Shown here piece after piece: positions 4,172 to 53,199 of a stretch of DNA of 64,000 nucleotides (position 1 is its first letter; each line of letters opens with the position of its first letter). Below the pieces are notes generated by a model. The model did not search any database. It worked only from the letters and a program-made list of their open reading frames with translations, and had not been told where the DNA came from. The stretch lies in the NCBI GenBank assembly GCA_900544595.1, contig UQVQ01000002.1, forward strand, positions 75,690 to 139,689, given 5' to 3'. The position numbers and the translations under genes are program-made. The DNA is from an uncultured Bacillota bacterium (GTDB lineage Bacteria; Bacillota; Clostridia; Christensenellales; UBA1242).

Positions 4172-4172
4172 A

Positions 4173-6524: not shown

Positions 6525-6542
6525 TTAAATTTAGTTTGATAA

Positions 6543-34130: not shown

Positions 34131-34140
34131 TACACGAATA

Positions 34141-34180
34141 AAACGAACCTTGAAGATAGTTCAGGGTTCGTTTTGTTTTT
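34141..34180 (+). terminator. Strong rho-independent terminator of the tRNA-Cys/Leu unit
   Basis: 14-bp stem AAACGAACCTTGAA / TTCAGGGTTCGTTT followed by a T-run. Confidence 0.8.
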
Positions 34181-34264
34181 TAACAAGGAATGTTTTGGAT
34201 TTAAACTAAGCATATAGACAAAAGAAGGCTTTTTGTTATAGCCTTCTTCTTTTTATTATTTGTT

Positions 34265-35341
34265 TTACTGATTGTTCGAAAATTGTTTTATGTAATCTTC
34301 GTAAGAAATGCCTTTCTTTTTTAAACTCTCAATTAGAGCAGTATTAAATGCAGTATCCTTGCAATTGTTTTCATCATGTTTTATATACTCACCATGTTCA
34401 TTAATTTCTATTTTTAACATTTTTGACAGCTCTTCAATTGTTATCTTTTTTATGTCCTTATGGTTATCTTCTATATTATGGTCACAAGACAAATCTCTTT
34501 CACCATACTCATCCCCCATAACAAAATATGAACAAATTGATCCTTTATTTCCATAATTGTATCCTGCATTAAAAATAGCTTCAATAAGTCTCAATCTTCC
34601 TTCCGTTGTTGTTTCTTTAATAGAATCCGATAAACAAATTAAAGGCCAATTATCTCTTTCTGGATATTTTTCTGCAATTTTCTTCAATTTTTTAGCAAAT
34701 TTACCTGTTTTTTCGCCAATTTGATCATTATTTTCTTTATTTTGTTTTATTGAAGAAACAATAAAGTTTTCTGTCCTATCTTTAACGTTAGGACATAATT
34801 CAATAATCTCAATAAGAGAAAATCCAAGTTTATTAAGTATTTCCTTGAACTCTATCATTGTATTGTGGGCGTCAACTTCAGCGTCATGTTCACCCTCTTC
34901 GCCCTTTAATTCAAGTTCTTCCAAAATGTTTAATACTGATATTTCTTTTTTAGTATTCTTGTATTCTTTATAAAACAATTTAACATCGTAAAAATCAAAA
35001 TCAATACTTGGTAAATTATATCTTTTACAATCATCATTTAATGCCTTGGCGTCATTATTTAGCGAGTGCCCTAGAACATAATCACAGCTTTCTATTATCT
35101 CCTTAATTTTAGGATAATATTTATTGAAAGTAAGTCTTTCTTCATACTCCTTTTTAGTTCTTGTAAGTATGTGTTTTAATGCCCACCAATCCCATTCATC
35201 ATTAGATATGTATGGATTGATTATAAGATTATTCCTTTCTATTATTTCAAACTTTTCATTAGTTATAACATACCCGAATTCACAAATCTTGCAACCATTT
35301 TTACAACTCGCATATTCTAAATCAAAAAATAAAATTCTCAT
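34265..35341 (-). CDS. DEDD (DnaQ-like) 3'-5' exonuclease with a C-terminal BRCT-like region
   Basis: FFDLE (ExoI), GHSLNNDAKAL (ExoII) and HDAEVDAHNT (ExoIII, DEDDh). Downstream segment ICLSDS....R..LIEAIFNAGYNYGNKGSICSYFVMGDE resembles a BRCT fold pattern. Confidence 0.7.
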   Translation of the reverse strand: MRILFFDLEYASCKNGCKICEFGYVITNEKFEIIERNNLIINPYISNDEWDWWALKHILTRTKKEYEERLTFNKYYPKIKEIIESCDYVLGHSLNNDAKALNDDCKRYNLPSIDFDFYDVKLFYKEYKNTKKEISVLNILEELELKGEEGEHDAEVDAHNTMIEFKEILNKLGFSLIEIIELCPNVKDRTENFIVSSIKQNKENNDQIGEKTGKFAKKLKKIAEKYPERDNWPLICLSDSIKETTTEGRLRLIEAIFNAGYNYGNKGSICSYFVMGDEYGERDLSCDHNIEDNHKDIKKITIEELSKMLKIEINEHGEYIKHDENNCKDTAFNTALIESLKKKGISYEDYIKQFSNNQ

Positions 35342-35357
35342 TAGTTATTTTCCTTTA

Positions 35358-35744
35358 CTATATTTTATCACCATTAAAGATAATGTCATTACCAACATTT
35401 ATTTCTTCAATTAAGTTCTTTTTTTTATAAAACCAATCTTTTTCATTTGTATATCTATCAGAAATATAATTGATATTTTGATTTAATGAACCAACTAATG
35501 CTCTATCGTTATCAATTTTCTGCTCATCAAAATAACCATCAATGATGATATCACATTGACTTTTTAAATTATCTTCAATTTCATTTAATTGATATCCCGT
35601 AAAAAGAATTATGCCTAATTCCAAATTTTTAACTTCTTCAAGTAGTTTAACTAAACCGGTTTGTAAGAGTGGTTCCTCCTCTCTGATACTGATTTTATCA
35701 ATGATATTTCGCAATAGCCAGCAATGAACACTTGCATTGCGCAA
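35358..35744 (-). pseudogene. 5'-truncated NrdG-like (anaerobic RNR activase / 4Fe-4S single-cluster radical-SAM) gene fragment
   Basis: ...EEPLLQ....LLEEVKNLELGIILFTGYQLNEIEDN....CDIIIDGYFDEQK.......GSLNQN aligns by eye with the T4/E. coli NrdG C-terminal two thirds (GGDPL...WTGY...DVIIDG.Y....RGS.NQR). The N-terminal CxxxCxxC segment is missing, and the fragment abuts the tet stop codon. Confidence 0.55.
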
Positions 35745-35748
35745 GACG

Positions 35749-37668
35749 TTACATTATCTTCTGAAACATATGGCGAACCTTATCTAACCGACTATTTGGG
35801 CGGCGAGGTTGTACTACAGGTTCCCCTGAAGTTTCCTGATACCCTTTCAATTCTGTCAAGCAAACGCTTCTTCCATTTGTATAGAAATTCAAATCACTTT
35901 TGTATTCCCCAATCCGTCTTGCTGGTATTTCTCCAGTTAAGATCGCTTCATTATTTTTTATTGAAGTTGTTTCAATTACCGCATCGTATTTCACAGCATC
36001 ATGATAAGCCCGTGAAAGATATTCCTGCGGTGCAAACAGGGTAAAAGAAAGATAGGGTTCTAAAACCTGTGTTCCTGCTTTTTTTAATGCCAGTTCCAGC
36101 ACAATGGGCGCAAGAAAGCGGAAATCTGCCGGAGTACTGACCGGGCTGTAGTAAACACCATATTCAAAACAAATTCTGCAATCTGTTACCTCCCATCCAT
36201 ACACTCCCTGCTCTAATCCATACCGAATCCCTTCCATAACTGCGTTTTGAAAGCTTTGGTTTAAATAACCGAGAGGCACTTTACTTTCATATTCTGTTCC
36301 GCTTCCAACAGGAAGAGGAGTGACAGCCAAACCAATCGACGCCCAAAAGGGATTTGGCGGTACTTCAATATGAATTGTATAATGAGCCTCTTTTCGTGGT
36401 CTCTCCCGATAAATAACGGTAGGCTCTTTTATTGCTACCTCGACACTATATTTTTCATTTAATAAAGAACAAACAACTTCCAATTGTACTTTTCCCAAAA
36501 AGGAAAGAATAATTTCATGAGTAATAGAATCAATCATAAAATGCAGAAGCGGATCAGTATCCGCAATCTCTGTAAGGGCATCCAGTAATGCTTCCCTTTG
36601 CTCTGCTTTGATTGGCTCTATCGTTGTCCGAAAAAGCGGCAGGGGATTATCCGTCCATGCCTTGCGTGGCAATAGTTTTTCATCTCCCAGAACATCATTT
36701 AGTTTTAATGTATTGTCAGATAAAATAACAATCTCCCCGGAATCAGCGGTGTCTGTTGGGACGATTTCTCCATCAAATGGAATTGACATCTCTGTAATTT
36801 TAATTTTTTCCTTTTTTGACAGAAGAATCGTTTCCCGTAAACAAAGCGTACCGCTATACAGCCTTAAATAGCAACGTCGTTTTTTCTGCTCGGTATATTC
36901 AATTTTAAAAACATACCCGCACAGTTCCGATTGACAGTTATCTGTTTTCGATGAAAAAATATCTGTGATTACATCAAGCAATTTTTTTGTTCCGATATTC
37001 TCTTTTGCGCTTCCATGATATACCGGAAAAAAAGTTCCCTGCTGTACCCTTCGCTTTATTTCTTCCTGAAGTTCCCGCAATGTCAAAGGCGCTCCTGAAA
37101 GATATTTTTCTAAAAGATTATCATTCCCGGCAATCACAGCATCCCACTTTTCAAAATCCGCAACGTCGGAAAGTGTTAATTCTGGAAATAAATGAACTTC
37201 CTGCATAACCATCATATCTTCTGTCAATTTTTCTCTGATATTTTGATAAGTCTGTGCAGGAACAAAGCCTTCCTGATCGATTTTATTGATAAAAATAATG
37301 GTTGGTATCTTCATCTTCCTCAGCGCATGGAACAGCACTCTGGTCTGTGCCTGTACTCCATCTTTTGCAGATATTACTAAAATCGCTCCGTCCAGAACCG
37401 ATAAAGAGCGGTACACTTCTGTTATAAAGTCCATGTGTCCCGGTGTGTCTACAAGATTCACTTTGTACTCTTTCCAGTGAAAAGATGTAACGGCAGCCTG
37501 AATGGTAATTCCCCTTTGACGTTCCAAAGCCATAGAATCCGTTCTTGTTGTGCCTTTATCTACATTGCCCGGTTCCATGATTGCCCCGCTTGTATACAGC
37601 AAGCTTTCTGTCAGTGTTGTTTTTCCTGCATCAACGTGTGCAAGAATGCCAATATTGATTATTTTCAT
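35749..37668 (-). CDS. Tetracycline-resistance ribosomal protection protein (Tet(M)/Tet(O)/Tet(W)/Tet(32) group; allele not assignable without a search)
   Basis: 639 aa. [30 protein letters not shown]...[23 protein letters not shown]...[56 protein letters not shown] is nearly collinear with known Tet RPPs. The segment is visibly GC-richer than its surroundings. Confidence 0.95.
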
Positions 37669-37706
37669 GTGTCATCCTCCATTCACAGCCAAAAAAGGCA
37701 TAAAAA

Positions 37707-37739
37707 TCCCCAGCAGCAAAATACTCTTACCGCTGGGGA
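37707..37739 (-). promoter_or_regulatory. Terminator-like attenuator hairpin in the tet leader
   Basis: On the minus strand: CCCCAGC-GGTAAGAGTATTTTGCT-GCTGGGG followed by ATTTTTAT, about 40 nt upstream of the tet ATG. Confidence 0.5.
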
Positions 37740-37906
37740 TTTAATCTTTGGACATACACATAAAAGACATACGCCAACAGACGCTTGTCACTTGTCTTAC
37801 TATGTCAATATATAAGGCAAAAGTATTCTTAAATAGGTACAAAAAACCAAGCCCTTGTTCCAAAGGACATCCCAAAGTTTTTTGTTCCCACTATTTGGTT
37901 ATAGTT

Positions 37907-37930
37907 TTATTTAAGAATACCCTGCCGCAT
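37907..37930 (-). promoter_or_regulatory. Candidate 7-codon leader peptide ORF (MRQGILK) of the tet attenuator
   Basis: AAGGAG RBS 9 nt upstream of ATG CGG CAG GGT ATT CTT AAA TAA. Lies between the predicted promoter and the leader hairpins. Confidence 0.4.
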
Positions 37931-37960
37931 ATTTTTTAACTCCTTTTTGGAAATATCATG

Positions 37961-37990
37961 ATTATAACACTAAACTGTACCCCTTGTCAA
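37961..37990 (-). promoter_or_regulatory. Candidate promoter driving the tet leader
   Basis: On the minus strand: TTGACA (37985-37990), 18-nt spacer, TATAAT (37961-37966). Confidence 0.5.
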
Positions 37991-37998
37991 GGACATTT

Positions 37999-38274
37999 TT
38001 ATTTATTTGTTCTAGGGAACGTCTGTTTGTCTACTTTACAACTTACAATCCCCTCTAATGGATAAATCCCTGTTGTGATATACTCATAATACTCGTTAGG
38101 TGACAACTTTGCCAACTGCCATTGATATCTGCTATTATTATAATAATCCATCCAGTCATCCACGATTGCTTTTACCTCACGATATTTGCTACATTCACTA
38201 ACATCTATCTCATCCTTCATATGTCCAAAAAAGCTTTCCTGTGGTGCATTATCCCAACAGTTTCCTTTCCGGAA
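37999..38274 (-). mobile_element. IS3-family transposase 3' remnant (last ~90 codons only)
   Basis: Reading frame gives FRKGNCWDNAPQESFFGHMKDEIDV...YYNNSRYQWQLAKLSPNEYYEY. This is the conserved RKGNC.DNA..ESFF..LK.E ... L..LSP.EY C-terminus of IS3/IS150-type OrfB. No N-terminal part or inverted repeats were seen. Confidence 0.75.
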
Positions 38275-39434
38275 ATAATCTCACCAGAATCCTCATCAAG
38301 ATTTTCTCTTATTTGTTTAGATATTTCTTTCTTCTCATTTTCAAGTTCTATAAGTTCTGGATTAAACTGAATTTGGTTTAATTCATCAATAATATTTCCC
38401 AAATCCATTCTCATAATTCCATTAATGTTTGATGTTTTGAAATATGTTTTCTTTCTAATTATGTCATTAATATCACTACTTAATTTTTCTAAAACATCTT
38501 TCTTAAACTCATTCTCATCAATAGTAAAATTATAGTTTCCAATCTTTTTAATCAAAAACTCATAATCATTTTTATTATTCTCTATTATAGAAATTTCTTT
38601 TCTGTAATTACTGATTTGTTCATTCAATAATTTCTTATTGTTTTCATGAGACGATATCTGATTTTTTACACTATCAATTTGAACTTGCTCTTTCAATAGT
38701 TTTTGATAATCCAATTTTAACTTTTGGAATTCTTCATCAAAGTTTTCTTTTGTCGCTGTGAAATTTTCAAATGATATTATTTGCTTATCAATTTTCTGTG
38801 AAATATTTATGTAAAAATTATCCACAAGTCTTTCTGGATTGTAATCTGTATTTTTACCATTAATGTTAGGTATCAATCTTAATGGCCTTATTTCTGGGAT
38901 TTTTGGCAATCTATCAAAGACATTATCAATGGCTTTATGAGTTTCGCTTGATACCAATATTTTTTTGCCTTTTTTTGTTAATTGAGCAATTATTTCAGCA
39001 ATAACTTGTGTCTTACCCGTTCCCGGTGGACCTTGCAATAAGAAAATACTTTCACTAGCAACTGCTTTTTTAACAGCTTCCTTTTGTCTATCATTTAAAC
39101 TTTGCAAATTCCATTCAATATCATCTTCTATATTGTGGTTAAGATTTTGTAATGACTTTGGCTCAAACAAATACCTTGACAAATAAGGATTTTTAACAAA
39201 ACCTTTGAAGAATGCGTCCAAAGATTTTTCTTGTCTTTCAATCTTCATTTTTTCTGCAATATTATTATATGTCATAAAACATGGCTTAATATTTTCAAGT
39301 TCTTTTCTTACTTCATCAACACTATTCTTTTCAATTTTAAATAGTATGTTAAATCTTCTAATTGTTTCATTTTCTATTGCTTTATTTATTTTTTCATTTT
39401 TAATATTTAATAGATACTCTTTTGTTTTAAACAA
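38217..39434 (-). pseudogene. Superfamily-1 (Upf1/DNA2-like, AAA_11-type) helicase fragment, 3'-truncated by the IS3/tet insertion
   Basis: Walker A segment LLQGPPGTGKTQVIAEIIAQL followed by KILVSSETHKAIDNV. The coiled-coil-like insert then breaks off near 38275-38290, where the frame runs into the IS3 remnant. No motifs III-VI are present. The frame is open upstream to 39566. Confidence 0.7.
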
Positions 39435-39523
39435 CTCTAAATTAATTTGATTGTTATACTTGTTTTTTAGTTCTTGTGTCTTTGATATTCTCGCTTTATT
39501 GATATTCTCATTTTTTTCTTTTT

Positions 39524-40795
39524 CTAACTTTTCTGCAAATTTTTTGCATTTTTCTTCATTTTTTTGTCAGAAATATCATTTTTTTCATTAAATTCTTTAA
39601 TTTTATTATTTTTTTCTAAATCAAGTTGCAAAGATAAGTCATCTAAATACTCATGAACTTCATCATTAATAATGTTGTTATATTGAGTTTCAACTTTGGC
39701 TTTATCATTCAAGTAATCGTTTTCAAATTCTTTTTCATACTTATCTGTGTTTGGTAAAATATCTTCTGCAAAAATTTTATATCTTTCATCTAATTGAATT
39801 GATTTTATTCCTGTTTGATTATTACTTGGTTCTTGTGCTGTTAAAGAAATGTCCTGTCTAGTAAATCTATTTAATAGTAATTCTTCTTTTGGTTTTCTAT
39901 CTTTTTCTGTCATAGCAGAATAAATTTCTTTTTTATTAAAGTCAACTTCAATGCTTACAAGTGGAAAACTCTCTGCCCCATCAACATTTTCAGTTATAAC
40001 AATTTGGTCATCTCTAACAAGTTCTTTATTTAATAATAATCCACTATATCTTTCTTCATTAAGTCTATAAACATTTCTAGGAATAATAAAAGTATTTAAT
40101 ATTTCACATTTATTAAATCTAATACATTTTTCAGATTGTGCTTCTAAATATTGTTTTCTAAATAATATATAATCTTTCCATTCTTCATAAGTTTGTAATA
40201 CTTTCTTATATTGTTTTACATAGAAAGGACTATTGACTAATCTATAAATAAAATCATTTGTTAAAACATTGCTTGCTGAATATTCATCAATGTTAACACC
40301 AAAATTGGGAACCTTAATTCCATTTGGAAGAACTTTTAATTCAAAAGCAACTGAACAATTACATTGAACACTTATCTCACTAACTTTATCTTCAATTTCA
40401 TCTATAAGTTCAATACCTTTAACGACAAACAAATAGTTTTTAAGACATTTTATATCTCCAATGATAATAATATCTTGACCTTCTGGTAAGAACCTTTTTA
40501 TTAAGGTATCCTTTTCTGGCCTTATGACAACATTTCTATAAATGTAATTTCCCTTTTTATCGCATTCCGCCCTTCTATCAAATGCCGGCATTGAAAAATG
40601 ATATATATTGGTCTTGTATGGGTTAAAACATTGATTCATAAATTCCTTAAAATTTTCAATAGTTGCCTTTTGAGTGTTTCCCATTTTCCTATAAATATTT
40701 GAATATTGCTCAACTAATGATGTGGAAAAATAGTCATCCCAATTTTGACTCCCTTTAACCATATTAAATGTGCAATCTAAAAATAAAAAATTCAT
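39524..40795 (-). CDS. Unknown ~420-aa protein; probably the N-terminal part of the downstream helicase gene, split by a frameshift
   Basis: GGAGGG RBS 5 nt before the ATG at 40795. Its 3' end overlaps the open frame of 38217..39566 by ~40 nt. Inserting one A in the A7 tract (39559-39565) would fuse them. Confidence 0.5.
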   Translation of the reverse strand: MNFLFLDCTFNMVKGSQNWDDYFSTSLVEQYSNIYRKMGNTQKATIENFKEFMNQCFNPYKTNIYHFSMPAFDRRAECDKKGNYIYRNVVIRPEKDTLIKRFLPEGQDIIIIGDIKCLKNYLFVVKGIELIDEIEDKVSEISVQCNCSVAFELKVLPNGIKVPNFGVNIDEYSASNVLTNDFIYRLVNSPFYVKQYKKVLQTYEEWKDYILFRKQYLEAQSEKCIRFNKCEILNTFIIPRNVYRLNEERYSGLLLNKELVRDDQIVITENVDGAESFPLVSIEVDFNKKEIYSAMTEKDRKPKEELLLNRFTRQDISLTAQEPSNNQTGIKSIQLDERYKIFAEDILPNTDKYEKEFENDYLNDKAKVETQYNNIINDEVHEYLDDLSLQLDLEKNNKIKEFNEKNDISDKKMKKNAKNLQKS

Positions 40796-41316
40796 CCTAT
40801 CCCTCCAACACGACATTTGTCAATACTAACCCATTTGCATTATAGCATATAATCAAAAGATTATCTTACTAAAATAAAAAAATCATCAACTTGTGTTGAT
40901 GACCAAAAATTTCTTTTTTCATGCAACACAAACAATGGAGCTAAATCCCATATAATTGAGTTACATACTTATAATTTTATCTATCTGGACTGTAGACCCG
41001 AACTTATAATACTCTCAAGGAAAACGAATACTATAAGATTTATAAAATGTAATTATATTAAATTATGTGCATTAGTTGACCTTCTTACCTGATATCCCTT
41101 GAAATATCTCATCACAACTCTATTATGCAAGAATAGAATAACAAAAACAATATTTTTTGTCAAGTATTACAAGGATTTTTTAATTTTAATTTTTCATTCT
41201 ATTTCGAATATAGCGCTCTCGTGTGTTCATCATTTGAACACGCGGGAATATTTTTATGTAAAAAATTTACCAACTCCAAGAGTTCAGCGTTTGAACTCTT
41301 CAAAAAAATTTACAAG

Positions 41317-41376
41317 AAAAAATAACCCAACACTAGTTGAGTTATTTTCTATATAAGTTATTAAATTTAATATATC
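41317..41376. repeat. Left copy of a ~60-bp direct repeat (terminator hairpin plus 30 conserved nt)
   Basis: AAAAAATAACCCAACACTAGTTGAGTTATTTTCTATATAAGTTATTAAATTT... About 90 percent identical to 46787-46846. Confidence 0.8.
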
Positions 41377-41440
41377 CTCATATATTTAAGGACACTTTCA
41401 TTCAAAAATTTAAGACAGGAAATTGAAAATCAATAAATAA

Positions 41441-41626
41441 TTATTTCTTTTCTTCCCATTTAGAACAAGCTCCATTCATGCAACCTTGGTTTCCATTTCC
41501 TCTTGATTTAATTTTGCAAACGTGTGTGGAACCTTCCCATTTCACAGAACTTCCTTGTCGTTGCGAATTTCCTCCAAAATGCTGACAAGTACAACAACAT
41601 TTTTGACTTACTGGTGTTGAATTCAT
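41441..41626 (-). CDS. Small Cys-rich protein (61 aa, 7 Cys, CCCTC motif)
   Basis: AAGGAG RBS; 27 nt after the GmrSD-like gene. Cys at positions 10, 11, 12, 14, 37, 49 and 53. No family recognised. Confidence 0.5.
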   Translation of the reverse strand: MNSTPVSQKCCCTCQHFGGNSQRQGSSVKWEGSTHVCKIKSRGNGNQGCMNGACSKWEEKK

Positions 41627-41653
41627 TTTTTAACTCCTTTTAATATACATATA

Positions 41654-43516
41654 TTATTTTTTAAATATAAACTTTGTTATTCTTTCTGCCACATTATTTG
41701 TCTCATTTTCTATATTTCCTTTATCCCATATTGGTTTTTCAATATTTTTATATTTTATCGCCAAGTAAGACGCCATTGGGTAATGGCTGTCTGCATAACA
41801 AAACTTTCCATCTATTGAATGGTGGACTTTAGTTCTAAACCAATCGTTACTTATAGACCTATTTATTTTTTGTTCTAGTAATATCTTATTTCCTATTTTA
41901 TTTACTATTTCATCAAACTCGTCTTTATCTTTTATATTGGCATCAATTTGTATTGCATAAATATTATGTCCACTAGCAGGCATTATGTGCTCTATATCAT
42001 ATTTATCATTTAAACTAAATTCTAAATGTTTTTCCTTAGCAAAAATAAATTCATTTAAATATACCAATAAATTTTTATCATAATCAGTTATATTTAATTT
42101 TATATCTTCTTCTTTCCAGTTAGAACAAATATGATTATTAAAATCTTCTACTATTTCAGAAATTGCGATACTATTGTTTAAGAACTTAACAGATTCGCCA
42201 AATAAAAACGTTTTAAAATTTTTACTTGAATAGCCGGCATCAACCAATTCTAGAATTACAAATAATCTCAACATAGTTTCTGAAAGTAATTCAACATTAT
42301 TTTTATCCAAAATATGGTTAATAAACCTATTAAAATAACACCCTAAAAATAATTTTGCGTTTTCGTTGAATTTTAATAGAATGTTTACAATTGGCATTTC
42401 ACTAACTTGGCTCCAAATTTTTGCAAGTGCGAGCATCTCGGTACAAGTCTTAATAGGGTTATCTATCAATTCTTTGTTTATTGCTGTAAAATATCTTCTT
42501 ACTCCCGGCACTGTAACATCAATAGACCCTGTTGATGTAACTACTTCATTATTTTTAGCTCTAGTAAGATACATATATTGCATTAAAATAGAATCTATGT
42601 CTAATATATTTTTTGCTGATAAAGCGTTCACAACATCCAATAATTCTTTCCAAATGTTAGAAAATTCACCATCTTTATTTAATCCTTTAGAAGTTGCGAA
42701 CAATTTTGCCGAAATTATATCCGCATCGCTTAATGGCATACCATCTGAGTTAAGAGAATTAAACATTGTTATAGCTTGTTCAATATTCCAACTTTTAATT
42801 TCAATGACTTCACATTTTTCAATTATAGTTTTTGCTATATTATTTACTTGACTACTATCTAATTCTTGTAATTTACCATAGAAAAACTTAAAATTTTTGA
42901 AAAAATTAGTATATATATTATCTTTTTGTTTATATTTTATTTTAAATACTTCGCGTTGTGCATCATCGTAATCTACAGCCTGCAGTATCCTATTTAACTC
43001 TTTTTTATATTCATCATTTTCATTATTTGATTTATTGATAAGAATATTTAATTGACTATAAAGTTTTTTATCTTCTTCTACATTTGGTTTTTCAGAAACA
43101 TCTTCAACTTCAGCATTATATAAAATATTTAAAATGGTTTTTCTACGATCTTTTAAACCTCTTAACAAACTACTAGACTCTTCATCATTTTCGCTAATTC
43201 GGCTAAGTAGATTATTAATATTTATCAGTAAAGCTTTCAGTAATAGTAAAAATGTAGTTGTTCTTTGTTGTCCATCTATTAGTTCATATAATGTATCTTT
43301 ATCATTACAACTAATAATGATTGTTCCAAAGAAATAATTATCTTTACCTTTGTTCTCTTTCTCTGAAAAATCGACAATATCTTGCCAAAGTTTATCACAA
43401 TTTTCAATTCCCCAAGAATATGGTCTTTGATATTCTGGTATTACGAATACTGCATCATCATCTAACTTTAAATATTCTCCAATTTTTCTTAATTTTGGTT
43501 CTATGTTTTTTGCCAT
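41654..43516 (-). CDS. GmrSD-family type IV restriction endonuclease (DUF262 + DUF1524)
   Basis: N-terminal IPEYQRPYSW and DGQQRTTT (DUF262/ParB-like NTPase). C-terminal DIEHIMP ... IGNKILLEQKINRSISN (DUF1524 His-Me finger). Confidence 0.85.
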   Translation of the reverse strand: MAKNIEPKLRKIGEYLKLDDDAVFVIPEYQRPYSWGIENCDKLWQDIVDFSEKENKGKDNYFFGTIIISCNDKDTLYELIDGQQRTTTFLLLLKALLININNLLSRISENDEESSSLLRGLKDRRKTILNILYNAEVEDVSEKPNVEEDKKLYSQLNILINKSNNENDEYKKELNRILQAVDYDDAQREVFKIKYKQKDNIYTNFFKNFKFFYGKLQELDSSQVNNIAKTIIEKCEVIEIKSWNIEQAITMFNSLNSDGMPLSDADIISAKLFATSKGLNKDGEFSNIWKELLDVVNALSAKNILDIDSILMQYMYLTRAKNNEVVTSTGSIDVTVPGVRRYFTAINKELIDNPIKTCTEMLALAKIWSQVSEMPIVNILLKFNENAKLFLGCYFNRFINHILDKNNVELLSETMLRLFVILELVDAGYSSKNFKTFLFGESVKFLNNSIAISEIVEDFNNHICSNWKEEDIKLNITDYDKNLLVYLNEFIFAKEKHLEFSLNDKYDIEHIMPASGHNIYAIQIDANIKDKDEFDEIVNKIGNKILLEQKINRSISNDWFRTKVHHSIDGKFCYADSHYPMASYLAIKYKNIEKPIWDKGNIENETNNVAERITKFIFKK

Positions 43517-43525
43517 AATCTTCTC

Positions 43526-44506
43526 CTATTCATATCTTTTGTTTATTTGTTTGACTATTTCTTTTATCTTATCCCTTGTGTCTTTTGGGGATAAAAGTTC
43601 TATATCTTCACCATATTGTAAGCACCAATAGATAAGTGAAGTTTCGTTTGCTGTTATATCTGCAAATATTGAGTTTTCTTTTTCATAAAGACTAGCATTT
43701 TTACCAAACCATTCTTCAACATAATTTGCAGCTTCTTCTCTATGAATTTTTACTGTCGCATTTATCGTTTTTGTCGCAAACATATAAATGTTTTCATTTA
43801 CATATTTTGCAATATCTAATCCATTTTCAAAACCTTTAACTTGCGTTACTGGTTTTATTGGTGTGTCTAAAATTTTAATGTTATGTATTCTTTCAAGCTT
43901 GTAGTTTCCTATTTCATCAAAATAATCATAATTACAAACTAAAAAATATTTTCCTTGATTATTTATTAGGCAATATGGGTTAACTTTATAGGGGTGCTTT
44001 TTTGTATTATTGTTTTTATATCCATTTCTAATATAATCAAACTCAATCTGTCTGTTATTTTCAATAGCTTCGTTAATTATATCAACATTATAAAATAGTT
44101 CTTTACTATCAGTTCTATTGAGTTCATCTGCTTTATACACATATTTGTATTGTTTTCGCTGATAAACACTTAAAAATTCTGATAGTTTTTTCGCAAGTTC
44201 TCTTGATTGCTTACTATTTATGCTTTTACTAGAAAATACAGCATCAACCAAAAACCTAATTTCACTTGGCTCAAACTCTCTACTAGCCAGATATGAGCCA
44301 GCATTTGTTTTGACAATGTCATAACCAAAATCTATCAAACTATCAATATTTGTGGCAATAGACTTTCTTTCACAAGTCATTCCATAAATATTGTTTATTT
44401 TAATAACTATATCATTTTGAGATAATAAATGATTTTCATCACTATAATCTCTTAACACTTGTAATGTGTATAGAATAGATAGTTTTTTATTTGATGATGA
44501 TGGCAT
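43526..44506 (-). CDS. WYL-domain transcriptional regulator (BrxR/CapW-like)
   Basis: N-terminal wHTH (LSILYTLQVLRDYSDENHLLSQNDIV...RKSIATNIDSLIDFGYDI). Central WYL-type segment (KVNPYCLINNQGKYFLVCNYD....YKLERIHNIKILD). Confidence 0.8.
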   Translation of the reverse strand: MPSSSNKKLSILYTLQVLRDYSDENHLLSQNDIVIKINNIYGMTCERKSIATNIDSLIDFGYDIVKTNAGSYLASREFEPSEIRFLVDAVFSSKSINSKQSRELAKKLSEFLSVYQRKQYKYVYKADELNRTDSKELFYNVDIINEAIENNRQIEFDYIRNGYKNNNTKKHPYKVNPYCLINNQGKYFLVCNYDYFDEIGNYKLERIHNIKILDTPIKPVTQVKGFENGLDIAKYVNENIYMFATKTINATVKIHREEAANYVEEWFGKNASLYEKENSIFADITANETSLIYWCLQYGEDIELLSPKDTRDKIKEIVKQINKRYE

Positions 44507-44521
44507 ATATTCTCCTTAATG

Positions 44522-44842
44522 TCAATTGGTTCTATAACCACTTCTTCTTAATGTTTCTTGTAATTTTCTTTTGAATTCTCTTTCATCAACCATATCATCA
44601 AGTTTATAATCAAATCTTGCGCCATTGTAACTTGATGAAGAACGAACATCTTTTGCTCCAGCAGTAGATAAAAAGTTTTGTATCTCTTTTTCAGGGTCAG
44701 CACATTTAATTGTATATCTTACTTCGATTTCGCCACCACAACTTCTTCTTATATAAATATTTCTTGCTCCGCTACGCGAAAGTTGTTCTTTAATTTCATT
44801 CTCTGGTTTTTTAAATTCTACATTAATGTTTGAATATTTCAT
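44522..44842 (-). CDS. Hypothetical 106-aa protein with an internal triplication
   Basis: AAGGAG RBS. The three units are PENEIKEQLSRSGARNIYIRRS / PEKEIQNFLSTAGAKDVRSSSS / DEREFKRKLQETLRRSGYRTN. No family recognised. Confidence 0.5.
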   Translation of the reverse strand: MKYSNINVEFKKPENEIKEQLSRSGARNIYIRRSCGGEIEVRYTIKCADPEKEIQNFLSTAGAKDVRSSSSYNGARFDYKLDDMVDEREFKRKLQETLRRSGYRTN

Positions 44843-44885
44843 TTTAATTTCTCCTTTATAATAACATATTTCTTTTTATTTTGTT

Positions 44886-46151
44886 TTAATTTTTTATAAT
44901 TTTTTTTATATCTTCTGAAATTAGCAACTTTTTCTTGTTTAATTCACTTGCTAGTTTGTCTAATGTGCCACGATTTTCAATTAGTATTTGTTTTACTTGT
45001 GCATAACTCTTTTCTAATTCATCATTAATGGATTTGTTTTGAAAAAATTTTTGCAATTCAGACACTTCGAAAGAAAAATACGAAGAACATTTGTCAAATC
45101 CATTTCCAGCATATTCAATGATAATTCTTTTTACCACTTCGACAGCTCTTTCAATATCTGATGAACAGCCAGCATCAAGTGTGCCGTATTTTATTTCAGT
45201 GGCACATTTTCCACCAAGCAAACATAATACTCTATTTTTCATGGATTTAACAGACTGCCAATAGCTTTCATCTCTGTAATATGCTGTAAAGCCACCAATT
45301 GATGAACCTTCATGCCCACCAATAGAAATCATTGTTACACTTTCTGGTTCCAAAATTTCGGCAATCAAAGCATGCCCAGCTTCATGATAAGCAGTTTGTT
45401 CATTGTCCTCACAAGTTCCATTTTTTATTGTTTCAGGAGCATTGTAAATAGTTCTAATACAAGCTCTTATAATATCATCAAACTCAATTTTATCTTTATT
45501 CTCAAATCCCGCATAAATTCCAGCTTGGTTTATTATTGTTTCAAGTTCCGCACAAGACCTGCCATTTAAAATTCGTGCTAACTGCTTAACATCTAGATTA
45601 GCAACTGCATTCTTTCCACTAAGGTAATGCTTGATTATCATTTCAGCATCTATCCCTTTTGGTGCTTTGATTTCAATACTAGTATCAAACCTTCCAGCTC
45701 TTAGCAAAGAATCAGGGACTAAACACAAATCATTTGCGGTTGCAATCACAAATACTTCAGAAGATTTAACATCATCAATACACGATTGAATAGTTACATA
45801 TTCTTCTGCATTCTTATGGTCTTTGTCTTCGTTTGCAAACTTATCAAAATCATCTAACAAAACTAATGACGGAGCATTGTTTTTTGCATCTTCAAAAGTT
45901 TTTTTGATGAATTTAATAAATTCATCATCTGGCAAATTTTTTCTGCAAACATAACATTTTTTACCACATTCTTCAATAAACGAATTAGCAATCAATGTTT
46001 TGCCTACACCGGGTTCTCCATAAAGTAATAAACCTTTTGGAATTTTGACACCCAATTTTTGATACTTATCACTATTTTTTATTACATCACAAATTCTTGC
46101 AATTTCTAACTTAATAGCATCATATCCAATAACCTTTTCAAAACCATTCAT
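44886..46151 (-). CDS. Soluble FtsH-like AAA+ ATPase / M41 zinc metalloprotease (no transmembrane region)
   Basis: Collinear with the FtsH cytosolic part: KIPKGLLLYGEPGVGKT (Walker A), LVLLDDFD (Walker B), VIATAN (sensor 1), LLRAGRFD (Arg fingers), AYHEAGHALI (HExxH), GCSSDIERA (third-ligand region). The ORF starts directly at the AAA module, with an AGGAGG RBS. Confidence 0.8.
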   Translation of the reverse strand: MNGFEKVIGYDAIKLEIARICDVIKNSDKYQKLGVKIPKGLLLYGEPGVGKTLIANSFIEECGKKCYVCRKNLPDDEFIKFIKKTFEDAKNNAPSLVLLDDFDKFANEDKDHKNAEEYVTIQSCIDDVKSSEVFVIATANDLCLVPDSLLRAGRFDTSIEIKAPKGIDAEMIIKHYLSGKNAVANLDVKQLARILNGRSCAELETIINQAGIYAGFENKDKIEFDDIIRACIRTIYNAPETIKNGTCEDNEQTAYHEAGHALIAEILEPESVTMISIGGHEGSSIGGFTAYYRDESYWQSVKSMKNRVLCLLGGKCATEIKYGTLDAGCSSDIERAVEVVKRIIIEYAGNGFDKCSSYFSFEVSELQKFFQNKSINDELEKSYAQVKQILIENRGTLDKLASELNKKKLLISEDIKKIIKN

Positions 46152-46359
46152 ATAATACCTCCTTTGGTTTTCAATTGCATTATACCAAAATGGGTGTACT
46201 AAAAATCGGACAACGATAATGAATTTTTATTTTTTTCGATAACACCTCCTAATCAAAATTTTTCAACACTACATATGTAATGTTTGAATAGTTAGTATAA
46301 ACTGCATAATTTGAGAGAATAATTAACTTAAATTATATTAATCGCGCAAACATTATACC

Positions 46360-46430
46360 ATAACTGATTGAATAATTATATCATTTTGTCAAAGATTTAC
46401 AAATTTTATAATAATAGCTCAATCAGTTAT
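46360..46430. promoter_or_regulatory. 12-bp perfect inverted repeat pair bracketing the putative XRE-gene promoter (candidate operator)
   Basis: ATAACTGATTGA (46360-46371) and TCAATCAGTTAT (46419-46430), with TTGTCA ... TATAAT-like boxes between them. Confidence 0.4.
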
Positions 46431-46471
46431 TTTACATACTCGTTTTAAAATATATGTAAGGAGCAATCATT

Positions 46472-46786
46472 ATGGAAAAAATCACTTATGACGATGTTAT
46501 AACTAGAATGGGGTATTTTAGAAATAAGGCAAATTTGTCTATGAGAGAAACCAGCTTGCAACTAGGATACAACCCACAATTTATGTCCACAATTGAGAAT
46601 AAAACAATAAAATTAAAGGTAAAAACTCTTTTGGAATTTTGTGACCTAGTAGATATTACTCCACAAGATTTTTTCTATATGGGGGAACACTATAACAAAG
46701 AAGATAAAAATGTTTTAGATTTATATAACCATTTAACAGATGATAATAAACAAACAATATTAGATTTAATGAAAAAGTTGAAATAA
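46472..46786 (+). CDS. XRE-family helix-turn-helix transcriptional regulator
   Basis: LSMRETSLQLGYNPQFMSTIENKTIKLKVKTLLEFCDLVDITPQDFF is a typical Cro/C1 HTH. Divergent from the FtsH-like operon. Confidence 0.8.
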   Translation: MEKITYDDVITRMGYFRNKANLSMRETSLQLGYNPQFMSTIENKTIKLKVKTLLEFCDLVDITPQDFFYMGEHYNKEDKNVLDLYNHLTDDNKQTILDLMKKLK

Positions 46787-46846
46787 CAAAAAATAACTCA
46801 ACAAAAATTGAGTTATTTTCTATATAAGTTATTAAATTTTATTTAT
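46787..46846. repeat. Right copy of the ~60-bp direct repeat; also a bidirectional terminator
   Basis: AAAAAATAACTCAACAAAAATTGAGTTATTTTCTATATAAGTTATTAAATTT... Perfect stem AATAACTCAA / TTGAGTTATT at 46791-46816. Confidence 0.8.
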
Positions 46847-46862
46847 CTCTTATACTGAGATT

Positions 46863-47234
46863 TTATAAATTCACCATAATACTTTTTACTCTTGGCATAA
46901 AAACATTGTATATATTCACAAGTTCGTTTGCCACCTTTTCTACATCAAGGTCAAAATCATAATTTGTATAGTTTGTTGTATCAAATCGTGGGTCGTTTAA
47001 TCGGCGAGGGCTTGGTTTTTTGTAATACTTTCCAAATCTACCAATTCTTGTTGCTATTTTTTCGTTATTTCTATCCCAAATAAGTTCATAACCAATTTCG
47101 TTTTCAATCTCTTTTTTATGCGAATAAAGTCTGTCATAAATAGTTTTTGCGGCTATACTTGGAAAAAAAACGCAAATATCTTTTAAATATCCACTTACAA
47201 CTCTTGTGTTTACCATAATTTTATTGAATGACAA
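46863..47234 (-). CDS. DUF4268-like protein, tandem copy A (possibly degenerate)
   Basis: KKEIENEIGYELIWDRNNEKIATRIGRF pattern (E.elG..L.W.r...k..RI), typical of DUF4268 by recollection. About 85-90 percent identical to copy B. Confidence 0.45.
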   Translation of the reverse strand: MSFNKIMVNTRVVSGYLKDICVFFPSIAAKTIYDRLYSHKKEIENEIGYELIWDRNNEKIATRIGRFGKYYKKPSPRRLNDPRFDTTNYTNYDFDLDVEKVANELVNIYNVFMPRVKSIMVNL

Positions 47235-47320
47235 ATCACTTGTTTTACGAACATCAAAATGCTCGCAATTATTTTTATATTTTACAAAGAAATCAGGGTA
47301 ATTTTCTTTAAAACATTGTG

Positions 47321-47755
47321 CTAATTTATCAAAGAAACTCTTCTTATCTTTTCTTTATCTCTCATTTCAGAAACCTCTATTCCTAAAATACTTTTTACTC
47401 TTGGCATAAAAACATTATATATATTCACAAGTTCGTTTGCTACCTTTTTCACATCAAGGTCAAAATCGTAATTTGTATAGTTTGTTGTATCAAAACGTGG
47501 GTCATTTAATCGGCGAGAGCCTTTTTCTGTATAATACTTTCCAAATCTACCAATTCTTGTTGCTATTTTTTCGTTATTTCTATCCCAAATAAGTTCATAA
47601 CCAATTTGTTTTTCAATCTCTTTTTTATACAAATAAAGTTTGTCGTAAATAGTTTTTGCATCTTTATCTCCAAGATACACACAAATATCGTGCAAACAAG
47701 CATAACGGTCAACTCTTACATTTACCATAATTTTACTAAATGTCAAATCGTTCAT
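47321..47755 (-). CDS. DUF4268-like protein, tandem copy B
   Basis: Same family pattern as copy A. Its frame is open upstream to the stop of the preceding 200-aa ORF, and it runs into copy A before a 1-nt deletion shifts the frame. Confidence 0.45.
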   Translation of the reverse strand: MNDLTFSKIMVNVRVDRYACLHDICVYLGDKDAKTIYDKLYLYKKEIEKQIGYELIWDRNNEKIATRIGRFGKYYTEKGSRRLNDPRFDTTNYTNYDFDLDVKKVANELVNIYNVFMPRVKSILGIEVSEMRDKEKIRRVSLIN

Positions 47756-47893
47756 TTTGCGAATATCAAAATGCCCGCAATTATTTTCATATTTTACAAC
47801 AAAATCAGAGTTGTTTTCCTTGAAATATTGTGCTAATTTATCAAAGAAATCTCTTCTTATTTTTTCTTCATCTCTTATTTCAGAAACCTCTAT

Positions 47894-48496
47894 TTATAAC
47901 TCTGGACATATTTTTTCCAATTTTGAAGAAGCTGTTATACCGTGTGGATTTGTTTGTATATCGTTTAAATCTTCATTTTCTCTGTCGTAAATTTCTATAC
48001 CACAATCTTCATATGCTTTTAGCGGATTTTCACGATGTTTTCTGTATCCTAGTGCGTTTAGTTGATTGTTTTCATCTTTTGTTATCCAACAAAGTCGTTG
48101 CTTTGAAATAAGTTCTTTGATTTTTTCAACATCAAGTTTTCCTTCTTTGCAAAGTTTAAGCAGTTTGGTTTTAAAATCAAAAGCAGTCGTCATATGTTCG
48201 TCTACAAAATGTTGATGAACAACTATTTTTGTCCCACCATTTGTTTTAACTGAACTCAACCAATCAAAATCCCTTATGTCTTTGCCTGTCAAACCATAAA
48301 ACTCGTTGTAAGCTTTTACACTTGCTAAATGTTTTGGAAATTTTGATAAAACCCACTCGTCGTGACTTGCTCTATCAAATATCCACTTGTTCGCAACTGT
48401 TGGATTATGAACCATTGCTTGGGTATAATCTAGTAGCATTTTGCACCAAGTATCAAAATCCTCTTCTTTATTCATAAATTTTTCGTTCGTATTCAT
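47894..48496 (-). CDS. Hypothetical protein (200 aa)
   Basis: AGGAGG RBS before the ATG at 48496 (MNTNEKF...). No family recognised. Confidence 0.5.
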   Translation of the reverse strand: MNTNEKFMNKEEDFDTWCKMLLDYTQAMVHNPTVANKWIFDRASHDEWVLSKFPKHLASVKAYNEFYGLTGKDIRDFDWLSSVKTNGGTKIVVHQHFVDEHMTTAFDFKTKLLKLCKEGKLDVEKIKELISKQRLCWITKDENNQLNALGYRKHRENPLKAYEDCGIEIYDRENEDLNDIQTNPHGITASSKLEKICPEL

Positions 48497-48566
48497 AATT
48501 CTTTCCTCCTTTTTGTATATGAAATATGTTATAAAAATTCTCAATTAAAACAAGTAAATTATTTTA

Positions 48567-49010
48567 TCATACATTTTTATTCTTAAAATCTCTTATTTTG
48601 TTTAATGTTATTTCACATCTGTTCCCACCAAAATACTTAAATAATAAATTCTTTAATATTGGTAATTTTGTTACTTCGTAAAATAGAGTTAATGAAGAAC
48701 AAAATTTTATTGAATCTATAAATCCCAATATTTCATAGATAGTAAAGTCTTTTAAATTTAACAAAATATTACAACATTCCAAATATCTATCCCACAAAAT
48801 TTTGTTTTTCGCATATGCCACCGCTTCTTCTATATTTTCAATTCCATAAATATTTGAATATTCACTTCTTCCAAGGCCCTTTAATTGTGGGAATATATAC
48901 CAAATCCAATGTGTTTCCTTATAACCATTTTTTAATTGTTTGATAACATCACAATAAATTTCATTTTGTGCTTTTATAAACCTTTCCAAATTATATTTAT
49001 CATTCTCCAT
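48567..49010 (-). CDS. DUF1810 family protein
   Basis: LERFIKAQNEIYCDVIKQLKNGYKETHWIWYIFPQLKGLGRSEYSNIYGIENIEEAVAY matches the DUF1810 signature (F..AQ...Y......G.K.SHWMW.IFPQ..GLG.S). Confidence 0.75.
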   Translation of the reverse strand: MENDKYNLERFIKAQNEIYCDVIKQLKNGYKETHWIWYIFPQLKGLGRSEYSNIYGIENIEEAVAYAKNKILWDRYLECCNILLNLKDFTIYEILGFIDSIKFCSSLTLFYEVTKLPILKNLLFKYFGGNRCEITLNKIRDFKNKNV

Positions 49011-49022
49011 CAAAACACCTGT

Positions 49023-49484
49023 TTATTGTTTCAAATTTGCAAAAGGCAACTGTCCATATTTGTTTTTAAATTCACACAACAATTCTTTTTTTACTTTTTC
49101 AGAATTTTCACACTTCATATACCATATATGCAAGTCTTCATAATTTTGTATTTGTCCAATTATTCTACCACCGAAGGCAGAAACATTTTTCCCACCCCAA
49201 AACTTGAGATGTTCCAAGACTCTTTTGTAAACAGTTTTAGATTCGCTTTTCCCAATATATAGAACATCCGCATCCTTCAACCATCTGTTTTGCAACTCAT
49301 CAATGGAAACAGCGACTTTTCTATCTCTCCATATCTCTAAATTAACAGCCTCGTTAAAATTTACTTTTCCAAAATCACTAGGAAGAACAATAATATAAAC
49401 TCCATAGTAATTTCCTTTGCTCTCGTTCAAATCTCTCAATGTTCCGCCAAATTCAAAATCTCTATCAAAAAATCTTTTAATCAT
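49023..49484 (-). CDS. Possible GIY-YIG-superfamily nuclease with a ~40-aa insertion
   Basis: GVYIIVL ... VLYIGKSE ... YKRVLEH ... KKELLCEF ... PFAN fit the GIY / YIG / Arg / Glu / Asn order. By-eye assignment only. Confidence 0.4.
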   Translation of the reverse strand: MIKRFFDRDFEFGGTLRDLNESKGNYYGVYIIVLPSDFGKVNFNEAVNLEIWRDRKVAVSIDELQNRWLKDADVLYIGKSESKTVYKRVLEHLKFWGGKNVSAFGGRIIGQIQNYEDLHIWYMKCENSEKVKKELLCEFKNKYGQLPFANLKQ

Positions 49485-49753
49485 TTTTTAATCTCCTTAA
49501 AAAAACAATCTCCTTGCTTTACCTTATATTTTAAGATTAAATCTATCAATTCTCTCAAAAATAAAATCATGTTTTTGTTTTGTAGGCGTTTTGTAAAATG
49601 CGTGATACTAGGAGTATTTACTCCTTTTTCTAAGCACCTTTCACACAAACACCATCTCCCATGACAATGATATTTTTTGTAAACGATTTCAAAATCTTCT
49701 AATTGCGGTTCACTAAAAATTTCGCCACAACACTTACACTTATATAGTGGCAT
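49481..49753 (-). CDS. Small Cys-rich (zinc-ribbon-like) protein
   Basis: MPLYKCKCCGEIF...YHCHGRWCLCERC. Stop overlaps the next start (ATGA). The start codon is uncertain (the ORF track extends to 49813). Confidence 0.35.
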   Translation of the reverse strand: MPLYKCKCCGEIFSEPQLEDFEIVYKKYHCHGRWCLCERCLEKGVNTPSITHFTKRLQNKNMILFLRELIDLILKYKVKQGDCFFKEIKK

Positions 49754-49763
49754 ATAAAATGTT

Positions 49764-50054
49764 TCAGTTCTCTCCACTATTTTTCTCCAAAACAGTTGTG
49801 TTCGTTGGTACACTTCCCCCTAGAAGTGGATAGGACTTCATGTAACAACCTTTACCTTTAATTGTAACAATGTCGCACCCATACTCCCTAAGATAACCAA
49901 TATTGCGAGCAATTGTTTTTCTATCACAAGAAATCCCACAGAATTTGCTAATTTGTTCTGCGATTTTTGTTTGATGCAAAGGACAATTTTCCGAACTTCC
50001 ATATTTTAATGCATCATAAACATATAATATAATAAGTTTTTTGTGTTTTTTCAC
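49764..50054 (-). CDS. Stand-alone winged-HTH protein related to the N-terminus of WYL regulators
   Basis: GTG start with a GGAGGTG RBS. LIILYVYDALKYGSSENCPLHQTKIAEQISKFCGISCDRKTIARNIGYLREYGCDIV parallels residues ~9-66 of the WYL regulator at 43526..44506. Confidence 0.5.
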   Translation of the reverse strand: MKKHKKLIILYVYDALKYGSSENCPLHQTKIAEQISKFCGISCDRKTIARNIGYLREYGCDIVTIKGKGCYMKSYPLLGGSVPTNTTVLEKNSGEN

Positions 50055-50155
50055 TTACACACCTCCACTATTTCAATTATATCATACCACATGAGACAAA
50101 AAGGACGCATATAGTTCTAAAAAAACTTAAATTGGTTTCCATCTTATACATTTCT

Positions 50156-51440: not shown

Positions 51441-51468
51441 CTTCTTCTCCTTTTAATCTATGCTATTA

Positions 51469-51576
51469 TATCATTACAATGACACATTGTCAATCAATTA
51501 TGACATTTTCTATCATTACAATGATATATCTGCATTTCAACCAATCACGAATATTAAATTTATATCATTACAATGA
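51469..51576. promoter_or_regulatory. Three direct copies of a 14-bp motif TATCATTACAATGA upstream of the DUF3990 operon
   Basis: Exact copies at 51469-51482, 51511-51524 and 51563-51576. Each contains the inverted half-sites TCATT / AATGA. Confidence 0.45.
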
Positions 51577-53190: not shown

Positions 53191-53199
53191 CAAAAAAAA

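Follow-up and report, generated by a model that had tools for sequence, protein, structure and literature searches.

How did an intact gene for tetracycline resistance come to stand between the broken remains of two genes of what may be a phage-defense operon? The question is posed by a stretch of 64,000 nucleotides (hereafter the window, whose coordinates are used throughout) from contig UQVQ01000002.1 of an uncultured Bacillota bacterium. At 35672-38270, with its genes on the minus strand, the window contains a foreign block of 2,599 bp made up of a ribosomal-protection tetracycline-resistance gene (tet), its leader, the last 300 bp of an insertion sequence (IS) of the IS3 family, and 77 nt of DNA beyond tet. 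The borders were drawn by alignment to tet-free relatives and to loci of the donor type; these loci and contigs (given L-numbers) were recovered by scans of genome collections and are mostly gut metagenome assemblies. The block is quite probably a stranded fragment of a mobile IS-tet module that replaced about 7.07 kb of the DNA of a defense operon by way of two short homologies.

A preliminary description of the region had set the segment apart as foreign and richer in G+C, and both traits hold: its G+C content is 39.2%, as against 30.4% in the left flank, 24.5% in the right flank, and 28.2% in the rest of the island, and near-identical copies of it occur in unrelated genomes. The same description recognized a 639-aa ribosomal-protection gene, a link between this gene and an IS3-family element, the C-terminal end of a transposase, truncation of both flanking genes, and deletion of target DNA, all of which are borne out below. 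Its overall verdict, a textbook footprint of IS-mediated capture within a defense island, needs to be divided. The capture was indeed linked to an IS, and the island deserves its name at the level of protein families, being variable, rich in defense genes, and situated beside a tRNA-Leu gene. That a transposase made the junctions is the part that does not stand.

A candidate defense operon cut down

What the block displaced can be read from close relatives that lack tet. A scan of the genome collection with the helicase fragment to the right of the block yielded L003-L008, gut metagenome-assembled genomes labeled 'uncultured Clostridia', which align with the window as far as 38255 and resume at about 35691. 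Between these points they carry about 7,075 bp (3621-10695 in L004), compared with about 2.6 kb in the window. Measured against L004 and L006, the window has lost residues 848-1435 of the helicase (588 codons, motif II onward), complete genes for proteins of 722, 366, and 608 aa, and, from the gene of an NrdG-like protein of 181 aa, the first 76 codons with the C29-x3-C33-x2-C36 cluster. The deletion thus comprises three whole genes and parts of two.

Both flanking genes are accordingly incomplete. At 38271..40816 (-) the window retains the 5' part of a superfamily 1 helicase resembling MkoA, about 847 of 1,435 codons (1,435-1,441 aa in the relatives), with motifs I and Ia kept and everything from motif II onward gone. 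At 35358..35671 (-) it retains the 3' part, codons 77-181, of the NrdG-like radical-SAM activase, without the CxxxCxxC cluster; the fragment covers only positions 55-136 of Fer4_12 and 63-152 of TIGR02491. The 128-aa open reading frame (ORF) that appears to be an NrdG-like gene owes its first 23 or so codons to donor DNA in the same frame. The last gene of the operon, at 34265..35341 (-), encodes a DEDD exonuclease (Pfam RNase_T) and is intact and syntenic in the relatives. The truncated helicase is itself split, into ORFs of 430 and 405 aa, by a frameshift from A8 to A7 at 39559-39565. The run is A8 in L098 and A7 also in L001 and L002, and it may reflect either decay once the gene was inactive or a homopolymer error common to these sequences.

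In the relatives the deleted genes (5388-10474 in L004, 12946-18032 in L006) form part of a conserved operon of six genes, encoding the MkoA-like helicase, the 722-aa and 366-aa proteins, a ClpB/DolB-like AAA+ protein, the NrdG-like radical-SAM protein, and the DEDD exonuclease. The intact helicase of L006 matches MkoA in PADLOC (2.2e-90), and the 608-aa ClpB-like AAA+ ATPase matches PDC-M37B/DolB. A search with the deleted 722-aa and 366-aa proteins, confined to PADLOC, found no match. The partner expected in Mokosh, a phospholipase D (PLD) nuclease MkoB or a fused MkoC, is not among the partner genes of the intact operon. Because no PLD partner is present, the operon is not called Mokosh but is regarded as a candidate defense system with a Mokosh-like helicase, judging from its gene content, and it may be a defense system not previously described. 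In the window, this candidate operon has been destroyed.

Two relatives of window 38217-39434 from other strains, P0390 and P0397, are versions of this helicase truncated in other ways, with C-termini ...KKGKKNIGIKRNS and ...KKVLLTRIFVIKYL..., which suggests that the helicase gene has been disrupted more than once.

Two short homologies at the junctions

The right crossover lies at 38255..38270 (-), in a perfect microhomology of 16 nt, GGAAAGGAAACTGTTG, common to the helicase gene and orfB of the IS. In a three-way alignment of the window, the IS (L087/L088), and the host (L004/L007), the host reads ...ATTTCC GGAAAGGAAACTGTTG TTAAGG... and the IS reads ...GTCGA GGAAAGGAAACTGTTG GGATAATGC..., the switch from host to IS taking place within the 16-mer. 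This word is the single longest in the same orientation that the 4.4-kb module shares with the 11-kb intact operon of L004. The codons RKGNC, assigned to the IS in the preliminary description, belong to the helicase as well, and the junction that it placed at 38275 moves accordingly into the 16-mer.

The left junction had been placed 4 nt past the tet stop codon, but donor-type DNA continues for 77 nt past the stop, to 35672. Here the crossover falls on GGAAC, at 35672-35676, within a longer, imperfect similarity between donor and host (35672..35695 (-); 21 of 25 positions with gaps). The partners are, on the donor side, the region of the ribosome-binding site (RBS) of a helix-turn-helix (HTH) gene that follows tet, and, on the host side, the SGGEP codons of the NrdG-like gene. 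The donor reads ...CAGTATCAGAGAGGAGGAAC|TATTTTG and the host ...CACTATCAGGAGGGGAAC|CACTC. The 24-nt similarity has a score of 13.5, which was reached by 2 of 20,000 random pairs of positions.

The block ends at an IS terminus on neither side and lacks a target duplication: the right border lies 1,482 nt inside the IS and the left border lies in passenger DNA. For these reasons the block appears to have been fixed not by a transposase but by homology-guided illegitimate (microhomology) recombination or deletion.

The IS element and the mobile module

The IS remnant at 37971..38270 (-) corresponds to nt 1483-1782 of the element (300 bp) and is 100% identical to the IS of L094 and L093. It consists of the last 91 or so codons of OrfB and the right terminal repeat; the left end, OrfA, and the first two DDE residues are missing. 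The frame 38274-37999 (-) reads FRKGNCWDNAPQESFF...LSPNEYYEY and fits only the end of NF033516, the model for IS3 transposases, over its last 63 positions (307-369 of 369; 70 bits, below the cutoff of 160), and it matches Pfam rve_2/rve_3. With no complete OrfA or OrfB and a single terminal repeat, the copy in the window is no functional IS3 element.

Intact copies are found in L089, L093, L094, and L099. They are 1,782 bp long, with ends TATAATGTACCC and GGGTACAGTTTA (the right end reading ...GGGGTACAGTTTA, the left end being TATAATGTACCCTATAAGG), and encode OrfA of 141 aa (HTH_Tnp_2) and OrfB of 323 aa (HTH_21 and rve), which overlap by one base. Solo copies are flanked by target duplications of 3 bp, TAA in L093 and AAG in L099. 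The element in L094 and L093 is thus a member of the IS3 family by its two ORFs, rve domain, terminal repeats, and 3-bp duplications. It is called unnamed here because no plasmid-borne IS3 member has an OrfB more than 62% identical to its own. A distant blastn comparison of the remnant with plasmids gave only partial IS3 matches of 69-87%, and an exact 32-mer from it has no match in viral contigs. The 73-aa ORF of the remnant is present on at least 80 contigs. One protein, P0249 (an IS3 OrfB of 325 aa), agrees fully with the remnant over its C-terminal 92 aa but has a clearly different N-terminal part, a pattern suggesting that different members of the IS3 family recombined at the conserved SMSRKGNCWDN region.

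Where did tet come from? When 35400-38600 was compared with plasmids and phages by megablast, the only matches were of 72%, to tet(W), and no direct donor was found among these; the donor context came from Tn916-like loci in the genome collection. A tet with 95% identity (P0004) resides in a Tn916-like element of L083/L084, which also has a relaxase, sigma/HTH_16 genes, a Tn916-type integrase, and, after tet, an HTH gene. Loci L083-L085 match the window from 37970 to 35672 at 95%, a span that takes in the -10 box, the leader, tet, and 77 nt past its stop. The window itself does not hold a Tn916-family conjugative transposon, as only the leader and the 77 nt after tet are of such origin. The exact Tet protein of the window occurs in the same context in the metagenome assemblies L001 and L002.

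In sister loci the intact IS stands upstream of the same tet. The boundary between the two, GTTTA|GTGTTATAAT (...GGGGTACAGTTTA|GTGTTATAAT), does not vary among the IS-linked loci examined, at least 14 in number, which indicates a single ancestral insertion of the IS 4 bp upstream of the extended -10 box of tet. In the composite form of the module the order is IS, tet, 77 nt, the 5' part of the HTH gene, and then, across an internal joint, the 3' part of IS orfB with the right end, so that the second 'IS' is a 3' fragment of 371 bp. The joint lies in a microhomology of 10 nt, AGGGATGTCA. Composites are found in a conjugative element, in BREX (L102), in phage-like regions, and upstream of rpsL, with 3-bp duplications in L089 (AGT), L107 (GAT), and L108 (GTT). 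A duplication of 4 bp (AGTT) was considered for the composite and dropped in favor of 3 bp, as L099 fits only 3 bp. By this evidence L089, L107, and L108 carry a compound transposon; the window, with one IS end that points into the passenger and no duplication, does not.

How might a second right end have arisen? In L105, within an L085-like element, the IS is followed by a perfect tandem repeat of 2,814 bp (1732-7349) that contains two identical copies of tet, the repeats overlapping by exactly the 10-mer AGGGATGTCA. Since this is the structure expected of it, a tandem duplication mediated by microhomology probably created the second right end and hence the composite. In L103 a tet of the L085 type is followed by the tet unit, and the two loci together point to amplification of the unit and its integration by homology. 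Other derivatives have further microhomology joints: ACAGGAAAGC in L089, GATGTTAnTGAA in L086, and AAAGC in L090 and L091. The site that the solo IS occupies in L093 forms the right flank of L100.

The module is also present close at hand. Sister strains L089 and L094-L097, whose flanks are 98-99% identical to the window, carry the composite at 30394-30397 of the window, where the window has the empty target site; in the sisters it lies inside a gene with collagen-like repeats, duplicating AGT in L089. Within one species, then, the module is found in two positions, about 5-8 kb apart. Direct derivation of the block from the sister composite at 30394-30397 was considered and could not be told from other sources, identities being 99% either way.

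A hybrid promoter and the leader

The preliminary description credited tet with its own promoter and leader. This is true of the leader and of half of the promoter. The boundary between IS and Tn916-like DNA falls at 37971/37970, within the promoter at 37961..37990 (-): the extended -10, TGTTATAAT (37969-37961), is resident to tet, while the -35, TTGACA (37990-37985), 18 nt away, sits within the right end of the IS. The promoter matches the consensus at 12 of 12 positions and has TG besides, and it is the sole 12/12 match in the region. In L083, a locus free of the IS, the -35 position reads TTTCTT (2 of 6).

Hybrid promoters with a -35 borne by an IS are a known means by which resistance genes are activated, and in the IS3 family a promoter at the junction of the excised circle (Pjunc) is known for IS911, IS2, and IS150. 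The present IS shares this layout: its right end bears an outward TTGACA, and joining its right and left ends with 3 bp between them gives a predicted TTGACA-17-TATAAT. Beside tet the same -35 is coupled to the resident -10 at 18 nt. It differs from those systems in that the IS is unnamed, its OrfA and OrfB overlap by one base, and the layout is known here by sequence. Circle formation by IS2 and IS911 is the subject of papers such as PMC3219604 and PMC3299598.

The leader, 292 nt at 37669..37960 (-), contains a short upstream ORF, MSFMCMSKD (37770-37741), and, just ahead of the RBS GGAGG (37680-37676), a terminator-like hairpin with a T-run at about 37740-37700. Its predicted fold has an energy of -95.8 kcal/mol (z = -6.15 relative to shuffled sequences). 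The leader is 99-100% identical across all IS-linked loci and 90% identical to that of the Tn916-like loci. A scan with Rfam found no family in it, the window matching just tmRNA and tRNAs.

The resistance gene

The tet gene itself (35749..37668 (-), 639 aa) is uninterrupted. Its product belongs to the TetM/W/O/S family by NCBIfam NF033148 (1195.6 bits, cutoff 1100), scores 822 bits with NF012153 (cutoff 775), and falls under the cutoffs of the hidden Markov models (HMMs) specific to the Tet(M) and Tet(Q) classes. The Pfam domains GTP_EFTU, EF-G_D2, EFG_III, EFG_IV, and EFG_C give it the five-domain architecture of elongation factor G, the G motifs and the YSPVS loop of domain IV are visible in the alignment, and it matches the cryo-EM chains of TetO and TetM (4v6v, 3j9y) over its full length. 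One would therefore predict that tet, intact and equipped with its leader and a consensus hybrid promoter, is expressed and confers resistance by dislodging the drug from the ribosome.

To which class does it belong? Identity is 71.6% to Tet(O/32/O), 69.9% to Tet(W), 69.6% to Tet(M), 67.6% to Tet(O), 64.4% to Tet(S), and 39.7% to TetB(P), these being the classes compared. Since each value is below the limit of a tet class, 80% amino acid identity to the reference (PMC5181394), the protein falls into no named class among those tested. Nor is it a mosaic of them, because no segment of 80 aa exceeds 86% identity to any. With Tet(W), Tet(O), Tet(32), and Tet(M) it has in common the family HMM, the length of 639 aa, the order of domains, the GTPase motifs, and the YSPVS loop, as well as a home in Tn916-type elements, a leader with a terminator-like hairpin, and mosaicism within the gene, though it is only 64-72% identical to each of the named classes tested. 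The mosaicism in this case is a patch of 138 nt (36493..36630 (-), gene nt 1039-1176) with 15 clustered substitutions relative to all other IS-linked copies, including the window-type L092 and L098. All 15 match the Tn916-like alleles of L083 and L085, and the patch looks like gene conversion between tet alleles.

The gene is widespread. Its 90% cluster has 1,314 members, one variant being present on 322 contigs, and a relative in the cluster with 93% identity, labeled in RefSeq with the family name only, is found in Blautia, Hungatella, and Enterocloster. A search of the literature for a name for this allele found none. Three genes of Berglund et al. 2020 (PMC7725328) were considered and set aside: NF60/G307, which is 51% identical to Tet(44), is a different gene, NF98 resembles Tet(T), and NF49 is related but is another gene. 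The Tet peptide of the window does not occur in the text of the supplement to that paper, the part of the source consulted.

Proposed history of the block

The observations may be assembled into the following history. A ribosomal-protection tet would have resided in Tn916-like conjugative elements of gut bacteria of the Lachnospiraceae type. The 1,782-bp IS3-family element would have inserted 4 bp upstream of its extended -10 box, and a tandem duplication at the 10-nt AGGGATGTCA would then have placed a second IS right end downstream of tet. The resulting IS-tet-ΔIS composite would transpose into many genomes with target duplications of 3 bp. Finally, in the window, a sub-fragment of one unit (IS nt 1483-1782, promoter, leader, tet, and 77 nt) would have replaced about 7.07 kb of the helicase/ClpB-like/radical-SAM operon, joined at two short homologies, one perfect at 16 of 16 nt and the other perfect at 5 nt within 21 of 25. 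The replacement may have occurred in either of two ways, which fit equally well. Incoming DNA may have replaced the interval in one double crossover; both crossovers lie close to the internal joint of the unit, within about 70 and 135 nt, which would suit a fragment of unit length. Or the composite may have inserted inside the 7-kb interval and been trimmed by two microhomology deletions, resembling the loss of ISApl1 from Tn6330. With no transposase and only one IS end left in the block, tet would now be immobile except through homologous exchange of the island.

Several points weigh against this history. The 5-nt microhomology on the left is weak alone, and its support hangs on the longer similarity around it, which is imperfect. 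No intermediate turned up when the truncated helicase was compared across its junction variants, most of which have the same C-terminus. The order of some steps of the module, e.g., duplication before composite, is drawn from present-day metagenome contigs, which can collapse or mis-join repeats. As to the gene, resistance and promoter activity are read from the sequence only, and Tet(44) and full-length Tet(32) were absent from the comparison of classes.

Might the IS3 transposase itself have captured tet and inserted it here, deleting the adjacent DNA, the IS being truncated later? The IS is evidently active elsewhere, as its solo and composite copies have 3-bp target duplications, composites have landed in other defense loci (e.g., BREX in L102), and transposition into the 7-kb interval is conceivable as a first step. 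Deletions made by a transposase begin at an IS end, however, and both junctions as they stand, one deep within the IS at 16 nt of identity with the host, the other in passenger DNA, and neither with a duplication, contradict the idea; we consider it improbable. A further worry is that short repeats led an assembler to join a contig with tet to the island. The sources are indeed metagenome assemblies, the junctions do fall in repeats of 16 and 5 nt, and the related contig L087 starts with an Illumina TruSeq adapter (positions 1-36, a contamination of the assembly, the remainder agreeing with other loci). But 16 nt is far below the k-mer sizes of assemblers, the junction-spanning 128-aa ORF is found on 7 contigs of up to 327 kb, and L001, L002, L092, and L098, from different studies and assemblers, have identical junctions with flanks that have diverged by 0-7%. 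Because the same junctions recur in independent assemblies, the structure of the block is no artifact of assembly, and an error of this kind deserves next to no credence. It is equally hard to credit that the block is ancestral to the island and that the tet-free relatives swapped in the 7-kb segment. Presence and absence by themselves give no direction, and nothing specific speaks for this order of events; against it, the genes flanking the block in the window are incomplete halves of genes intact in the relatives, the block has foreign G+C and ends inside an IS gene, and its identity to copies in unrelated genomes is 99-100%, whereas the flanks around it fall to 92.6% (L092).

Replacement by a stranded fragment of the IS-tet module is thus preferred, and the window may be an instance of something wider. 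A tandem duplication selected by tetracycline may have made a new composite of 4.6 kb that spreads an unnamed tet class among many uncultured gut Bacillota, with the gene driven by the circle-junction -35 of the IS, and that has repeatedly been trimmed and immobilized by microhomology. We offer this as a tentative idea, with chances slightly short of even. If it is true, the window is one such end state, which also knocked out a defense system.

Comparison with known systems

A close parallel is Tn6330 (ISApl1-mcr-1-pap2-ISApl1), whose IS copies were later lost through deletions between microhomologies, leaving the gene fixed (bioRxiv 10.1101/2023.06.07.543989). In both cases a resistance gene is carried in a compound transposon of an IS that moves by copy-out-paste-in, and derivatives are later immobilized. 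The IS belongs to the IS3 family here rather than IS30, the second 'IS' is the 371-bp fragment from a tandem duplication, and the microhomologies are 16 and 5 nt rather than 2-4 nt. Moreover, the deletion in the window is not IS-sized: about 7 kb of host DNA is gone, and 300 bp of the IS with its outward -35 is kept.

One might also compare the module with unconventional circularizable structures and with the translocatable units of IS26 type. As in those systems, tet lies between direct repeats, occurs in tandem copies (L103, L105) and in many contexts, and is found beside a solo IS site (L100). The repeats here are a whole and a partial IS, no circle was observed, and the composite has 3-bp target duplications that argue for ordinary transposition of the IS3 kind.

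SPDIR (short-patch double illegitimate recombination) likewise substitutes foreign for resident DNA with microhomologies at both joints, in part imperfect and extended. The patches described for it are tens of bp long, whereas here 2.6 kb replaces 7 kb and a route by insertion and deletions is equally possible.

All of this is of known kinds, as hybrid IS promoters, compound transposons, and the decay of such transposons have been described before. The event is unusually well resolved: the related loci trace, to the base pair, the insertion of the IS at the promoter, the birth of the composite, its spread with duplications, and its immobilization by microhomology. What gives the locus its value is that history, together with a widespread tet determinant that belongs to none of the named classes tested and that surveys based on gene names probably under-count, given its family-level name in RefSeq and its place under the 80% rule. 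The price of fixing tet here was a candidate phage-defense operon.

The island and its surroundings

The host belongs to an abundant uncultured lineage of gut Bacillota; its polynucleotide phosphorylase is labeled 'Firmicutes bacterium' and relatives with 91% identity are labeled 'Christensenellales'. The variable island occupies 19 kb, 34131..53193, starting directly after tRNA-Leu(taa) (34045-34130). The sister strains L089 and L094-L097 lack it entirely, L089 and L096 joining window 53194 straight to 34130. Near its end lies an N-terminal fragment of a resolvase (138 aa, 52631-53047), and no att-like direct repeat was seen at 34131-53193. Besides this fragment and the disrupted helicase operon, the island contains genes for a GmrSD-type nuclease (matching HEC-06, Orf5, and SspE), a WYL protein, an FtsH-like AAA-protease, and DUF4268 proteins. 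At 46878-47899 genes of the DUF4268 type are duplicated in tandem, the repeat being about 510 bp long (84-90% identity).

Just outside the island, at 33077-33631, is a gene for a 184-aa membrane protein with a Pfam match to KwaA of Kiwa (PF28043, in the precomputed annotation of L089). It adjoins a gene for a 364-aa ankyrin-repeat protein (31897-32991), and a KwaB was not noticed in the vicinity. Directly upstream of the helicase gene in L098, at 159-1714 of that contig and just beyond window position 40788, lie an IS1595-family transposase and an aminoglycoside nucleotidyltransferase (PF10706). By this annotation a second resistance gene appears to have landed at the helicase locus in this strain of the window type.

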